DNA of 64,000 nt. Origin: an uncultured Solirubrobacteraceae bacterium (lineage in GTDB: Bacteria > Actinomycetota > Thermoleophilia > Solirubrobacterales > Solirubrobacteraceae). The notes beneath the pieces are model-generated. The model was not told the origin of the DNA and ran no database searches. It worked only from the letters and a program-made list of their open reading frames with translations. Both the position numbers and the translations under genes were made by a program. This document shows positions 5,030 to 23,297 of the stretch, piece after piece. Every line of letters starts with the position of its first letter. Within the stretch, counting starts at the first letter, position 1. Where the stretch lies: assembly GCA_963793935.1 (NCBI GenBank), contig CAWCBZ010000005.1:75139-139138 (forward strand). Direction: 5' to 3'.

Positions 5030-6148
5030 ATGCTGTGGCCGATGAGCACGACACTCACTTCCACGCCGGCTGCCGACGGCTACCACATGCCTGGAGAGTT
5101 CGAGCCTCACGCCGGCTGCTGGATGGCGTGGCCTGAGCGACCCGACAACTGGCGCGACGGCGCCGCACCCGCACAGCACGCCTATGCACAGGTCGCCGAG
5201 GCGATCAACGCCGTCGAGCCGGTGACCATGGTGGTCTCCGACGTCCAGTACGAGCGCTGCCGCGCGTCGCTCGCGGACTCCATTCGCGTCGTGGAGATGT
5301 CGACCGACGATGCCTGGATGCGCGATACCGGACCGACGTTCGTGATCGACTCGGCAGGCTCCCGCCGCGGCGTCGATTGGCGCTTCAACGCGTGGGGCGG
5401 CTCGCAAGGCGGGCTGTACTCCACCTGGGATCGCGACGAGCGTGTCGCGCGCAAGGTGCTGGAGATCGAACGCACCGACCGCTATCGCGCGCCGATCGTG
5501 CTCGAGGGAGGCGCCGTGCACGTCGACGGCGAGGGCACGGTGATGACGACCGAACGGTGTCTGCTCAACGCCAACCGCAACCCTGAGCTCTCACGCGAGC
5601 AGATCGAGCGGACCCTGTTCGACCATCTCGGCGCGAGCAAGGTGATCTGGCTGGGCGACGGCGTGTTCAACGACGAGACCGACGGCCACGTCGACAATCT
5701 CGCCTGCTTTGCGCGCCCCGGCGTCGTGCTGCTCAGCTACAGCGACGACGAGACCGATCCCCAGCACGCGATCTCACGCGACGCCGAGCAACGCCTGCAA
5801 GCAGCCACCGACGCGCGCGGACGTTCGTTGGAGGTGATCAGACTGCCCTCGCCCGGTCCAATCGCGATCGGCGAGCACGAGGCCGCGGGGGTGCTGCCGG
5901 CGCAGGGAAGCATGCCGCGCCGCGCAGGCGACCGGCTGGCGGCCTCCTACGTCAACTTCTACCCGGCCAACTCGCGCGTCGTCTTCCCTCTGCTCGACGA
6001 GCGCCAAGACGATCAGGCCGCAGAGATCCTCGCGCGCTGCTTTGCCGACCGCGAGGTCGTCGGGGTGCCCGCGCGCGAGATCCTGCTGGGCGGCGGCAAC
6101 ATCCACTGCATCACCCAGCACGTGCCGTCGACCGTCGCCTCCAGCTAG
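5030..6148 (+). CDS. aguA: Agmatine deiminase
   Basis: MPGEFEPHAGCWMAWPER, AWMRDTGPTFV and C-terminal GGGNIHCITQQ(H)VP are hallmark agmatine deiminase / porphyromonas-type peptidylarginine deiminase motifs. The listed 849-aa ORF is a GC-driven upstream extension; the true start is at M 5030 or 5042. Confidence 0.8.
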   Translation: MLWPMSTTLTSTPAADGYHMPGEFEPHAGCWMAWPERPDNWRDGAAPAQHAYAQVAEAINAVEPVTMVVSDVQYERCRASLADSIRVVEMSTDDAWMRDTGPTFVIDSAGSRRGVDWRFNAWGGSQGGLYSTWDRDERVARKVLEIERTDRYRAPIVLEGGAVHVDGEGTVMTTERCLLNANRNPELSREQIERTLFDHLGASKVIWLGDGVFNDETDGHVDNLACFARPGVVLLSYSDDETDPQHAISRDAEQRLQAATDARGRSLEVIRLPSPGPIAIGEHEAAGVLPAQGSMPRRAGDRLAASYVNFYPANSRVVFPLLDERQDDQAAEILARCFADREVVGVPAREILLGGGNIHCITQHVPSTVASS

Positions 6149-20021: not shown

Positions 20022-21113
20022 CTAGGCGAGCGCGCCGAGCGTCGGATCGCCCGCCGCCAGGTCGGCCGGCCGCGACGGCGGGGCCTCGGCGCGACGGGCT
20101 GCCGCGCGCCCGCGACGGCGCGGGCGCCACACGCGCAGATACTGCGCGGCGACGTAGGAGCCGAGCACGAGCGCCAGCGCGATCGCCTGCCCGATGAAGG
20201 TCTCCCAGTTGTTGAACAGCGAGAACCACGTGCCCATCCAGGCCGGGATGCTCAGGCCGTGGATTTCGCTCGTGCCGATCCAGCCGGCGAGCTGCATCTC
20301 GTTGACCTGCTCGCCGACGGACACGACGAGCACGAACAGCAGCATCACGCCGGTAATCACGAGCAATCGCTTGTAGGGCAGTCGCTGGTGCAGCGCGAAC
20401 GTGAGCACGCCCGCGGCGGCCGTGAACAGCGCGCCGATCGCCACGCCCTCGAGCACCACGCTCGAGCCGTACAGCTCGCGCAGGTTCTGCAGGAAGATCA
20501 CGATCTCGAAGCCCTCGCGATAGACCGAGGTGAAGCCCAGCAGCGCGAGGCCGAGCAGCATGCGTCGCTGGTTGGTCTCGGGGTCGGCCGCGAGCAGGCT
20601 GCGACGTCGCTTGTGGTGGCTGGAGATCCAGCCGGTCCAGTAGACCTTGTGAAAGAACCAGTTCATCACGATCAGCAGCACGATCAGCGCGGGCAGGCCG
20701 GTCGCCGCCTGCACGTCGAACTCGCCGCCGTGGAACTGCCCGATCAACCAGATCACGGCGAACCAGGTGGCGATCGAGGCGACGATCGCGCCGGCGCCGC
20801 CGGCCGCGACGGGACGCCTGTAGAGCTTGTTGGCGCCGAGGAAGCTCGCCGTCACCGCGGCGAGCACGAGGATCGTCTCCAGGCCCTCGCGAAAGACCAG
20901 GATGGCGCTGTTGACGACAACGGTCGTGTGGCTGAGGCTGCGCCCCGGCGGCAGATCGGTGGGGTTGGCGGTGCCACCGGAGGCGTGCCAACCGAGCACC
21001 ACAGCGGTCACGGAGATCGCCAGCACGAGCAGCGTCCAGACGTAGAAGCTCGCGCGCTCGTGCAGGCGCTTGGACGCTGCGGCGGTGTCGGCTGCGGGCA
21101 CGGTCTCGGCCAT
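20022..21113 (-). CDS. FTR1-family high-affinity iron permease
   Basis: Two REGLE motifs (VFREGLETILV and VYREGFEIVIF) in a 7-TM protein. Confidence 0.8.
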   Translation of the reverse strand: MAETVPAADTAAASKRLHERASFYVWTLLVLAISVTAVVLGWHASGGTANPTDLPPGRSLSHTTVVVNSAILVFREGLETILVLAAVTASFLGANKLYRRPVAAGGAGAIVASIATWFAVIWLIGQFHGGEFDVQAATGLPALIVLLIVMNWFFHKVYWTGWISSHHKRRRSLLAADPETNQRRMLLGLALLGFTSVYREGFEIVIFLQNLRELYGSSVVLEGVAIGALFTAAAGVLTFALHQRLPYKRLLVITGVMLLFVLVVSVGEQVNEMQLAGWIGTSEIHGLSIPAWMGTWFSLFNNWETFIGQAIALALVLGSYVAAQYLRVWRPRRRGRAAARRAEAPPSRPADLAAGDPTLGALA

Positions 21114-21132
21114 CGCGCGCCACGCTATCAGA

Positions 21133-21162
21133 TTAGGGTTCCCTAATATTAGGGGACCCTAA
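21133..21162. promoter_or_regulatory. Tandem near-palindromic operator (TTAGGGTTCCCTAA TA TTAGGGGACCCTAA) in FTR1 5' region
   Basis: A 30-bp AT-rich dyad sits 20-50 bp upstream of the FTR1 start in an otherwise GC-rich genome. Each 14-mer has TTAGGG/CCCTAA arms. Confidence 0.5.
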
Positions 21163-21237
21163 GACGCTTTCCTTGCAGCTCCTGGCGCGCGTCGCGGGGC
21201 TGGCGCGCGCTCGTCGCCGCCCAGCTGTGTGTGGCGC

Positions 21238-21550: not shown

Positions 21551-22339
21551 TCAGCAGGGTTCGAACCTCTTGCCGTTGAGGCTGAGCGCGAAGCGCACGC
21601 CCATGATGCCGGCGGCGCGGTCAGGCGCGCAGAACTGGCTCGTGCGCTTGCGGTACTCGGCATTGATCACCGGCTCGCCTGCCGCGAGGTAGGGCTGGAA
21701 GTCCGCGCATTCTTCGTACTGGTTGCACTGCTCTGTGAGCGCGCCGTCGAAGTAGGCGTGCAGCTGCGGCGTCTGTTCGCCGTCGTTCTTCTGCAGCGCG
21801 GCCATGCTCAGCGAGTGCACGTCTTCGGCGATCCACTCGTTGTAGGCGAGCTGCTGCTGCGGCGTGATCGCAAAGCCGCTTTTGTTGGAGAAGGCTTCGA
21901 TGTTGTCCGGCTCGACCGCGTCAAAGCCCTTTTCGCGGCACATCGCAAAGCGCTTGGCCATGATCGGCTCGATCGTCGAGAGCTTGCGAATGTCCAGCCA
22001 TTTCTCGCCGGGCCAGCCGTTTGAGCGTCCCAGCAAGGACTTCGGGAAGGCCGAGTAGTCGGGACGGAAGTTCTCGGCGGTGCCGGCGTCGATGTAGCAG
22101 ATCACGTGCTTGCCCTGCGCATGCAGCGCGGCGACCTCGCTGGCTTCGTTTTCGAACCCGTCGATGTCGTAGGCGGCGACCTGGTGTGCGTTTGAGACGC
22201 TGCCCTGCAGCTGCCAGAACCACGTCAGCTGCTGCGGCGGCTTCCACCAGCTCGGCGCGGCGCCGGCCGACGCGGCGGCGAGCGCGAACAAAAGCGCCAC
22301 GGCCACCACGGCGAGCGAGCGAGCGCTAGGCCGCGGCAT
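21551..22339 (-). CDS. Secreted glycoside hydrolase family 114 (endo-alpha-1,4-polygalactosaminidase-like)
   Basis: Signal peptide MPRPSARSLAVVAVALLFALAAASAGA. GH114 hallmarks are HVICYIDAGTAE and DAVEPDNIEAF. Confidence 0.65.
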   Translation of the reverse strand: MPRPSARSLAVVAVALLFALAAASAGAAPSWWKPPQQLTWFWQLQGSVSNAHQVAAYDIDGFENEASEVAALHAQGKHVICYIDAGTAENFRPDYSAFPKSLLGRSNGWPGEKWLDIRKLSTIEPIMAKRFAMCREKGFDAVEPDNIEAFSNKSGFAITPQQQLAYNEWIAEDVHSLSMAALQKNDGEQTPQLHAYFDGALTEQCNQYEECADFQPYLAAGEPVINAEYRKRTSQFCAPDRAAGIMGVRFALSLNGKRFEPC

Positions 22340-23297
22340 TGTCCTCGCGCCGCGACGGCGGCGAGCGCCGCGCGAGTATCGAGCCCCAGTCGCCGTCGGC
22401 GATCGCGCCGGGGCGCGTGTCGCGCATGAACTCGCGCAGCAGCCCGGACAAGCCGTCGGGGTCTTCCAGGTGCGGGAAGTGCGCGGCGCTCGGCAGCGTG
22501 GCGAAGCGGCTGTCGGGAATCGCCTCGTGCGCGGCGCGGCCGTGCGCAAGCGGAATCGTGTTGTCGCGCTCGCCCCACACGATCAGCGTCGGCAGCGCCT
22601 CCAGCAGATACAGCCGATCGGTCGCGCTGACGCGCTGGCCATGCACGTCGATGACCGCGCGCAGCGTGTGCAGGAAGGCCTGGCGCGCGCCGGCGCTCTG
22701 CAGCGGGCGCAGCGCTCGCGCGGCGGCCTGCAGGTAGACACCGGCGCCGACACCGCGCTCGCGCAGGCGCGCGCCGCCGGCTGCCAGCGCCTCGATCAGA
22801 CGCGGGCGGATCGTCAGCGCGAGCAGCGGCGAGACGCCGGGCAGCGCGGCGGTGCGCAGCGACGGCGTGACGTCGCGCCCCAGGCCGCCGCTGGAGATCA
22901 GGGCGAGGCGCTCGACGCGCTGGGGGAACTGGTAGAAGAACTGCATCGCCACGCCGCCGCCGAGCGAGTGCCCGACGATCGTCGCGCGGTCGATGCCGAT
23001 CGCCGCTAGCAGGTCGCGGATGCTGGCCGCGTGCGCGCCGAGCGAGTAGTCGCCGCGCGGCGCGGCGGAGTCGCCGTGGCCGATCAGATCCGGCGCGACG
23101 ACGGTGTACTCGCCGGCGAGGTTGAGCGCGACCTGGCGCCAGTGGCTGGAGGAGTTGAGCATGCCGTGGATCAGCACGATCGGCGGACCGCTGCCGGCGA
23201 CGCGGTAGATCACGCGGCGCCCGTGCAGCTCGATCTGCCACTCGTCGAACTGCGCCGGCAGCGGCGTCACGGCTGCCGGCGATCGGCCCTGACGCAT
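22326..23297 (-). CDS. Alpha/beta hydrolase fold protein
   Basis: HG oxyanion (IVLIHGM) and nucleophile elbow GHSLGG. Approx. 320 aa. Confidence 0.7.
   Translation of the reverse strand: MRQGRSPAAVTPLPAQFDEWQIELHGRRVIYRVAGSGPPIVLIHGMLNSSSHWRQVALNLAGEYTVVAPDLIGHGDSAAPRGDYSLGAHAASIRDLLAAIGIDRATIVGHSLGGGVAMQFFYQFPQRVERLALISSGGLGRDVTPSLRTAALPGVSPLLALTIRPRLIEALAAGGARLRERGVGAGVYLQAAARALRPLQSAGARQAFLHTLRAVIDVHGQRVSATDRLYLLEALPTLIVWGERDNTIPLAHGRAAHEAIPDSRFATLPSAAHFPHLEDPDGLSGLLREFMRDTRPGAIADGDWGSILARRSPPSRREDNAAA

Follow-up and report, generated by a model that had tools for sequence, protein, structure and literature searches.

Tandem 14-bp palindromes on the promoter of an FTR1-family permease gene as a candidate IdeR/DtxR-type iron operator in an uncultured Solirubrobacteraceae bacterium

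Results

A stand-alone FTR1-family permease gene with two palindromic boxes upstream

Within the 64,000-nucleotide stretch of Solirubrobacteraceae DNA that we analyzed (the window), a minus-strand gene encodes a member of the FTR1/EfeU iron permease family, which we identified by a match to Pfam FTR1 (PF03239; E = 3.8e-10, 40 bits against a cut-off of 25.3) and by the presence of both RExxE motifs (REGLE and REGFE) in its translation. Since a score of 40 bits is low compared with the 217 bits obtained for a classical FTR1 protein (locus L133), the gene belongs to a divergent FTR1 subfamily. Its closest homologues are 78-91% identical and are labelled either as Solirubrobacteraceae proteins or as high-affinity iron transporters, and a complete Solirubrobacteraceae metagenome-assembled chromosome (OY970301.1, locus L196) contains an orthologue that is 92% identical, with the same small ORF upstream and the same promoter as the window. 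The gene, its predicted promoter element and the two boxes under study are as follows.

20022..21113, minus strand: FTR1-family permease gene, stand-alone, 363 aa (Pfam FTR1 match and translation)
21122..21130, minus strand: predicted extended -10 element TGATAGCGT (TGnTAnnnT), 2 nt downstream of the proximal box, assigned by consensus
21133..21146, no strand assigned: promoter-proximal 14-bp palindromic box TTAGGGTTCCCTAA (minus-strand reading TTAGGGAACCCTAA), exact match
21147..21148, no strand assigned: 2-bp spacer TA between the boxes, giving a start-to-start offset of 16 bp
21149..21162, no strand assigned: promoter-distal 14-bp palindromic box TTAGGGGACCCTAA (minus-strand reading TTAGGGTCCCCTAA), exact match

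On its own strand the permease gene is preceded by a small ORF that matches no Pfam family and by a GH114 glycosidase gene, and downstream is an alpha/beta hydrolase gene; with these flanks, the locus is not an EfeUOB-type operon. Neighborhood clustering of 80 related metagenomic loci identified no conserved neighbor of the FTR1 gene, and no EfeO, EfeB or P19 partner adjoining it. The permease gene and its upstream region thus act as a self-contained unit, the neighbors varying across these 80 loci. We also considered a regulator encoded beside FTR1, and set this candidate aside when the same 80 loci contained no recurrent divergent regulator gene.

Read directly on the plus strand, positions 21133-21162 are TTAGGGTTCCCTAA-TA-TTAGGGGACCCTAA. 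Each box is individually palindromic, and the two boxes are in addition mutual inverted repeats, with arms of 15 nt that are 93% complementary and zero gap between the arms. Searching the window with TTAGGGNNCCCTAA and allowing up to two mismatches returned two matches, both of them the boxes, against a chance expectation of 0.18; two matches were reached in 0 of 100 shuffles. The looser pattern TTAGGNNNNCCTAA, allowing up to one mismatch, again found just the two boxes within the 64 kb. An earlier note on this DNA had described tandem near-palindromic boxes at 21133-21162, lying 20-50 bp upstream of the FTR1 start, and both points are borne out, in that the sequence is exact, the boxes are the sole matches in the window, and the ATG is that of the minus-strand ORF at 20022-21113. 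The same note had called this the most AT-rich 30-mer nearby, which holds only in part: the 30-mer is AT-rich (43% GC, compared with 68.5% for the window) but is not the most extreme, as the lowest-GC 30-mer within 2 kb on either side begins at 21122 (37% GC) and covers the predicted -10 element and the proximal box. The actual local AT-rich trough is 21122-21162.

Position of the boxes relative to the predicted promoter

The boxes are located on the predicted promoter of an iron-homeostasis-type gene, 2 nt upstream of a conserved extended -10 element. The predicted -10 hexamer is separated by 8 nt from the ATG at 21113, and we predict an FTR1 mRNA with little or no leader. Relative to the ATG, the proximal box would span approximately -33 to -20 and the distal box approximately -49 to -36, so placed that they would occupy the -35/spacer region. 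A two-hexamer sigma-70 promoter scan found no promoter, as is expected for a promoter without a -35 element, and we predict the promoter of the window from the consensus and from the conservation of the aligned extended -10. An anchored alignment of 71 related loci demonstrated that TGnTAnnnT begins 2-9 nt past the proximal box in 51 of the 71, and exactly 4 nt past it in 37. For one subgroup of relatives, the -10 hexamer seems to be part of the box (TTAGGGTACCCTAA). Whichever arrangement applies, the box is predicted to overlap elements of the core promoter, a geometry typical of repressors.

This geometry bears on the direction of regulation. IdeR activates transcription at bfrA/bfrB, and the center of the distal box lies roughly at -42, which resembles a class II activator site, so that a regulator that activates, or that both activates and represses, has to be weighed. 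Activation by a DtxR-family protein has also been described for TroR, at dpsA (PMC10783522). We nevertheless consider this reading very improbable, because in more than half of the orthologous promoters the proximal box is present alone, between the -35 position and the extended -10, a position that fits occlusion of RNA polymerase, and because both the target gene and the other genes flanked by boxes encode uptake functions, for which repression by DtxR-family proteins is known.

Conservation of the boxes in orthologous promoters

We analyzed the conservation of the boxes in 71 related metagenomic loci that include 150 bp or more of upstream sequence, in which the FTR1 orthologues are 63-87% identical to that of the window. 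Of the 71 loci, 69 have an exact TTAGGN4CCTAA in the 250 bp preceding the FTR1 orthologue, and 51 have the stricter TTAGGGNNCCCTAA; there was no exact TTAGGN4CCTAA anywhere else in the 531,433 bp of these loci. Within the 71-locus set the boxes do not vary in their arms but do so freely at the two central bases, with a G at position 6 in 69 of 91 boxes and a C at position 9 in 68 of 91. Invariant arms with a free center appear to be the signature of a site that is read by a dimeric protein, rather than of an RNA stem, and the element that is conserved across the orthologous promoters has the form of a one-dimer IdeR/DtxR site.

The proximal box is the one kept in nearly all orthologues, while 32 of the 71 loci have an additional box upstream of it. 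In these tandem loci the boxes abut (gap 0, a 14-bp offset) in 31 of 32 and are separated by 1 bp in the remaining one. The two closest relatives of the window, L003 and L196, have a 1-bp gap, and among the Thermoleophilia genome loci in the matches listed from our cross-genome scan (below), the gap is 0 in 26 of 45. The 2-bp gap of the window, with its 16-bp offset, is absent from both the 71 metagenomic loci and these 45 Thermoleophilia loci.

These comparisons also decide whether the palindromes need be a protein site at all. The 30-mer can fold, with a DNA minimum free energy of -8.2 kcal/mol (z = -3.6), and the stop codon of the upstream ORF comes 76 bp before it, as might be so for a terminator of that small ORF, another DNA or RNA hairpin such as a cruciform, or a chance AT-rich palindrome. 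However, the arms are kept although the central NN is free to vary, and many orthologues possess just one box, which is unable to form a stable hairpin; in addition, the upstream gene varies among loci, and the same motif recurs at unrelated iron genes. No T-run follows the palindrome, and the boxes lie upstream of the predicted -10 and would thus be outside the FTR1 transcript. A hairpin or chance origin is thus extremely improbable, and we regard it as effectively refuted already by the comparative data. At the RNA level, we identified no Rfam family in 15 related loci other than an unrelated tRNA and a c-di-AMP riboswitch, and RNAalifold gave no consensus structure for a conserved 5' UTR element of the relatives.

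The boxes match a one-dimer IdeR/DtxR site

[quoted passage not shown] In the same study, a two-repeat site bound a single IdeR dimer, its affinity being similar to those of two natural target sites, C10S1 and C10S2, and a redefined 14-bp one-dimer consensus, TTAGGNNNNCCTAA, was proposed (Marcos-Torres et al. 2021, PMC8464063).

Both boxes in the window are exact matches to TTAGGNNNNCCTAA, i.e., inverted CCTAA/TTAGG pentamers 4 bp apart, at all ten specified positions. A search with the canonical 19-bp IdeR/DtxR box TTAGGTTAGGCTAACCTAA at up to three mismatches found no match in the 64-kb window, and the boxes are therefore one-dimer sites by the 14-bp definition and not members of the canonical 19-bp class. 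The earlier note had remarked that the arms resemble the ends of IdeR/DtxR boxes, although the center differs. The exact match confirms the resemblance, and the different center (GTTC and GGAC, compared with TTAG/CTAA in the canonical 19-bp box) is explained if each box is a complete one-dimer site, TTAGG-N4-CCTAA, rather than a degenerate 19-bp box. Because the center is GNNC, there would be no second, interleaved dimer, and two dimers would therefore bind side by side. The consensus boxes of CsoR, NarL, DosR, FNR, ArsR and Fur were considered and set aside because the IdeR 14-mer matched exactly.

Compared with the canonical 19-bp box TTAGGTTAGSCTAACCTAA of Mycobacterium, Corynebacterium, Streptomyces and Saccharopolyspora, the pentamer half-sites (TTAGG/CCTAA) are identical, as are the 9-bp center-to-center spacing of the half-sites of one dimer and the location in iron-acquisition promoters, and in both cases two dimers are expected per operator (PMC8464063). 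The difference is in the layout: the canonical box contains four CCTAA repeats, and its two dimers interleave on opposite DNA faces, offset by 5 bp, whereas a box in the window contains two repeats, and a second dimer would bind at a separate box with an offset of 16 bp (14 bp in most relatives). The half binding site in the nuo promoter of S. erythraea has the same 14-bp consensus, TTAGGNNNNCCTAA, as each box in the window. That half site is an exception among 19-bp boxes, whereas the Thermoleophilia 14-mer appears to be standard on iron-uptake genes, where it is found singly or as an abutting tandem, with a G at position 6 and a C at position 9 that are typical of the lineage.

Tandem boxes across genomes

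Our scan of one genome per species in approximately 185,000 species, using the pattern TTAGGN4CCTAA-N(0-12)-TTAGGN4CCTAA, identified at least 120 loci, compared with a rough chance expectation, at uniform base composition, on the order of ten for the whole collection. Among the 120 matches listed, 119 are intergenic, and most are less than 100 bp from a start codon. The largest cluster of flanking genes among the matches listed consists of DtxR/IdeR-family regulators (30 of 152), and these box-flanking regulator genes are found in Acidobacteria, in Chloroflexi/Dehalococcoidia and in several archaeal groups, which suggests autoregulation in those groups. In the Streptomyces and Actinomadura matches listed, the flanking genes include heme oxygenase.

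The matches listed include 45 that are labelled Solirubrobacterales or Thermoleophilia. By a tally of Pfam matches and protein clusters, an iron- or metal-uptake gene adjoins the boxes in 32 of these 45 loci, an FTR1-family gene in 13 and another metal-uptake gene in 19, so that the enrichment upstream of metal-uptake genes that the earlier note had proposed to look for was found when the check was run across genomes. The other flanking uptake genes are as follows.

Binding proteins and EfeO/EfeB-like components: Peripla_BP_2 siderophore-type binding proteins, imelysin/EfeO-like proteins, Dyp/EfeB peroxidase
Further ferric iron and siderophore functions: Fe3+-type solute-binding proteins, an FbpB-like permease, siderophore-interacting protein (SIP)
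Further uptake genes: HtaA heme-binding protein, ZIP, P19-type 'Iron_transport', Fea1, ABM monooxygenase

For example, at locus L137 the boxes occur with a Dyp/EfeB peroxidase gene divergent from FTR1. Locus L198, which is labelled as Actinomycetota only, has a heme oxygenase gene beside the boxes. About a quarter of the Thermoleophilia matches listed have flanks without an evident iron link, or lie at contig ends. Iron-independent fumarase is a classic iron-sparing target, and one further listed Thermoleophilia site has a fumarase C gene on one side and an rpsD paralogue on the other.

Among the matches listed, a G..C flank of the center is commonest in Thermoleophilia, while C..G and T..A dominate elsewhere, and half-sites with the extra G/C (TTAGGG..CCCTAA) are uncommon outside Thermoleophilia. 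In the Thermoleophilia matches listed, we found no other family of transcription factors repeatedly beside the boxes. The motif thus appears to mark an iron regulon in Thermoleophilia and to be physically linked to DtxR-family genes in other lineages.

Search for the regulator

We searched for the gene of the regulator using tblastn with Mtb IdeR and B. subtilis MntR as queries, which identified no DtxR-family gene in the window and a single match in the Thermoleophilia DNA that we fetched, at positions 5256-5936 of locus L094, a Solirubrobacterales locus. This gene adjoins the FTR1 orthologue and is divergent from an NRAMP/mntH gene. The protein that it encodes has Asp at the position of IdeR Met10 and Glu at that of Cys102, which are manganese-type ligands, and its recognition helix departs from that of IdeR at Pro39 and Gln43. 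There is no TTAGGN4CCTAA between mntH and the regulator gene, the sole match in the locus being the FTR1 site. Judged by these features, the L094 protein is best read as an MntR, and argues against manganese control of the boxes.

The L094 locus is accordingly where the metal can be weighed. A manganese-responsive DtxR paralogue, MntR/SirR-like, could bind the boxes, with the FTR1-family permease taking up manganese or mixed metals: in L094 a manganese-type regulator of this family is encoded directly beside an FTR1 orthologue, ZIP transporters are among the box-flanked genes, and similar half-sites are possible among DtxR-family paralogues. We consider manganese control improbable, given that the mntH-regulator intergenic region of L094 lacks TTAGGN4CCTAA, that the recognition helix of the L094 protein differs from that of IdeR at the two residues named, and that iron-specific genes dominate the flanks (heme oxygenase, HtaA, SIP, siderophore- and Fe3+-type binding proteins, EfeO/EfeB-like proteins). 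The earlier note had allowed for either iron or manganese; the iron part of that claim is supported by the neighboring genes, and the manganese part is disfavored by the L094 region without a box.

A Thermoleophilia IdeR was not found by an IdeR search, in a representative library, among the cluster names of 10 candidates, or by a profile search built from six deep-branching candidates. The named regulator matches are from Mycobacteria, Frankiales, Ancrocorticia, Euzebya/Egibacteraceae (Nitriliruptoria), Stomatohabitans and Acidimicrobiia. Examination of the recognition helices of 24 DtxR proteins encoded beside tandem boxes showed that Pro39 is retained and Gln43 is not, which gave no discrimination. 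Our literature search found no paper joining IdeR or DtxR with Thermoleophilia.

With no Thermoleophilia IdeR orthologue found in these searches, the iron-responsive regulator might belong to another family, either CRP/FNR-like or an unknown HTH dimer, with the likeness to an IdeR site being convergent. The 14-bp 5-4-5 palindrome is a shape also typical of FNR-type sites, and the extra G/C of the Thermoleophilia half-sites is uncommon in other taxa. This too we hold to be improbable: the boxes agree with the IdeR one-dimer consensus, which comes from experiments, at each of its ten specified positions, the tandem motif adjoins DtxR-family genes in 30 listed loci from other phyla and Archaea, and no other regulator family recurs beside the boxes among the matches listed.

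Discussion

It is very likely that an iron-sensing repressor of the DtxR/IdeR type docks at the two 14-bp palindromes upstream of the FTR1-family gene. We propose, with a probability of about 0.8, that an iron-loaded DtxR/IdeR-family dimer on each 14-bp box blocks transcription of the FTR1-family permease gene, and that loss of iron releases it. The identity of the binding protein is inferred from the motif, from the content of the regulon and from the literature; the direction of regulation, the transcription start and the occupancy of one dimer per box are likewise our interpretation of the sequence comparisons. The earlier suggestion of an IdeR/DtxR-type operator for high-affinity iron uptake is supported by the conservation of the site in 69 of 71 loci and its absence from the rest of that DNA, by its overlap with the core promoter, and by the genes that border the listed tandem boxes, of the DtxR family in other phyla and for iron uptake in Thermoleophilia.

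In the mechanism we propose, each TTAGG-N4-CCTAA palindrome would be a full site for one dimer of a DtxR/IdeR-family regulator whose gene would be at another genomic location. With enough iron present, the regulator, loaded with metal, would occupy both the proximal and the distal box and, being positioned over the -35/spacer region and upstream of the extended -10, would block RNA polymerase and so keep the permease gene off. When iron is scarce, the apo-regulator would depart and FTR1 would be transcribed, probably as a leaderless mRNA. The two dimers would be side by side at a 16-bp offset, as opposed to the interleaved 5-bp offset of the classical 19-bp box.

Several observations count against this reading. 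The window has no canonical 19-bp box, and the 2-bp spacer is absent from the Thermoleophilia relatives examined. A DtxR-family gene is absent from the window, and our searches found no Thermoleophilia IdeR. The sole DtxR gene seen in a Solirubrobacterales locus (L094) looks to be of the manganese type and is beside mntH. In addition, approximately one quarter of the Thermoleophilia matches listed flank genes without an evident iron link, and the promoter was assigned from the consensus only, the two-hexamer scan having been null.

Two described systems provide a measure of what is familiar and what is not in a repressor of this kind acting at this locus. Fur represses efeUOB in E. coli and ywbLMN in Bacillus subtilis, which are operons with FTR1-type permeases. 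These operons resemble the locus described here in that a permease of the FTR1/EfeU type is shut off by an iron-loaded repressor over the promoter, as we propose for the window. They differ in that the regulator is Fur acting at a Fur box, and in that the permease is co-transcribed with EfeO and EfeB; the permease gene in the window is stand-alone, and in related genomes these boxes also occur at EfeO-like and EfeB-like genes located elsewhere.

A closer parallel in the DNA site itself is the archaeal TroR, a DtxR-family regulator of Haloferax volcanii, for which ChIP-seq gave the motif TTTAGGC-NNN-CCTAAAA (PMC10783522). ChIP-seq and reporter assays demonstrated that TroR mediates iron-dependent repression of uptake and siderophore genes, and at a siderophore promoter with tandem copies of the motif either copy is enough for this repression (PMC10783522). 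The TroR operator has the same 14-bp core as the boxes in the window and two copies per promoter, but it is part of an archaeal TATA/BRE promoter, its copies are approximately 30 bp apart, and position 6 is a C rather than the G found here. The TroR site has been verified experimentally, whereas the boxes in the window are predicted sites.

An iron-loaded DtxR-family repressor on the promoter of an uptake gene is already textbook; the layout of the boxes is new. Compared with the cases described previously, the 14-mer, alone or as an abutting pair, appears to be the standard form across a whole class and not an exception, its half-sites are extended to TTAGGG/CCCTAA, and its most consistent target is, from the comparison of loci, a divergent, partner-less FTR1-family permease. 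We put forward, as a tentative idea that we would not yet favor, that Thermoleophilia, and perhaps Acidimicrobiia, may have abandoned the interleaved 19-bp box for 14-bp one-dimer sites (TTAGGG-NN-CCCTAA), arranged singly or end to end at an offset of 14-16 bp. If this is true, the lineage would offer a natural setting in which to ask whether a single DtxR-family dimer is enough for repression and whether adjacent dimers cooperate, e.g., through the SH3-domain swap discussed previously (PMC8464063). The most consistent target of the boxes would in that case be a divergent FTR1 permease without an adjoining EfeO, EfeB or P19 partner.

Solirubrobacterales and other Thermoleophilia are abundant soil Actinomycetota that are almost uncultured, and our search found no regulatory literature on them. 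The boxes described here provide a concrete candidate regulatory site, and a 14-bp motif, for iron control in Solirubrobacterales/Thermoleophilia. Because selection here preserves the 14-mer and not the 19-bp box, they also give independent comparative support for a 14-bp recognition unit, and iron regulons may be predicted with the motif in metagenome-assembled Thermoleophilia genomes.

Leader and start region of FTR1

Many FTR1 orthologues keep an imperfect inverted repeat in the leader, about 25-30 nt past the -10 element, which takes roughly the form AwAnCCnA-N9-TCGGGwTT, in which CC, A and TCGG do not vary; one instance is ATAACCGAGTGTAAGGGTCGGATTT. The loci that carry the repeat come from related metagenomic DNA or from the genome scan for tandem boxes (L-numbers):

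L015:5950-6018, L004:217-285, L030:2732-2800 and about 30 further FTR1-orthologue loci: leader inverted repeat

This repeat matched no family in Rfam, RNAalifold predicted no structure for it, and its third stem position varies with no compensating change; it may act as an additional protein-binding site or as an RNA element of an unusual kind. It is not present in the window, where the promoter, judging from its sequence, appears to have lost the leader repeat and gained a leaderless state. In the closest relative, L196 (OY970301.1), whose FTR1 is 92% identical, an ATG directly past the -10 element begins a 15-codon ORF (L196:3719-3765, minus strand), the TGA stop of which overlaps the FTR1 ATG (ATGA), and this upstream ORF may be leaderless and coupled to the permease. 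In the window, the counterpart of the upstream ATG shares the reading frame of FTR1.

Directly upstream of the window operator lies a small ORF, which is probably about 93 aa long and probably starts at MMTAET. Its C-terminal ...CDQLREHLYGCD... is kept in L196 and is missing from most other loci. Several repeats also lie around or near the operator, and these may be due to chance in DNA of 70% GC.

21238 to ~21520, minus strand: small ORF, no Pfam match
21114-21122 / 21183-21191: GC-rich inverted repeat, 9 nt, perfect, flanking both sides of the AT-rich operator and promoter
21107-21122 / 21201-21216: GC-rich inverted repeat, 16 nt at 81%, flanking both sides of the AT-rich operator and promoter
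21182 and 21200: direct repeat, 10 nt, CTGGCGCGCG

One related locus carries a c-di-AMP riboswitch upstream of the FTR1 promoter region, which is unrelated to the FTR1 operator finding:

L014:485-634, minus strand: c-di-AMP riboswitch (69.9 bits, E = 2.6e-14)

Boxes in Archaea and Acidimicrobiia

Tandem TTAGGN4CCTAA boxes were found in two archaeal loci, with distant FTR1 homologues (29-30% identity) within a few kb. The Nitrososphaera-type loci have in common a small protein (cluster 8) that flanks the boxes and has no match in Pfam. The boxes of Acidimicrobiia have the same G..C flank as those of the window lineage.

L081:2067-2094: abutting tandem boxes, Thermoproteota
L140:1988-2015: abutting tandem boxes, Nitrososphaeraceae
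L082:5113-5141 and L139:1605-1634: G..C-flanked boxes, TTAGGGTTCCCTAA-G-TTAGGGAACCCTAA, Acidimicrobiaceae

In the IdeR-like proteins of Acidimicrobiia (P0362, P0465-type) the recognition helix reads SAPAVSE versus SGPTVSQ, i.e., Gln43 is replaced by Glu, and this change may correlate with the extended half-site.

Neighboring genes

A divergent gene pair lies directly downstream of the FTR1 orthologue in one Solirubrobacterales locus, where the DtxR-family product has metal ligands of the manganese type and the interval between the two genes contains no TTAGGN4CCTAA box:

L094:3739-5936: NRAMP/mntH and DtxR-family genes

Glycosidase genes recur near the boxes, as GH114 in the window and in another Solirubrobacterales genome, and as GH5 and GH39 flanking the boxes in L127 and L198.

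21551-22549, minus strand: GH114 glycoside hydrolase, two genes upstream of FTR1
L146:435-1406: GH114 gene, 99 bp from tandem boxes

In a further locus, a class II fumarase gene and the gene for a paralogue of ribosomal protein S4 are divergently oriented, with boxes in the interval:

L114:3966-6036: the two divergent genes with tandem boxes (gap 10) between them

Their placement suggests that the same regulator controls an iron-sparing substitution here.
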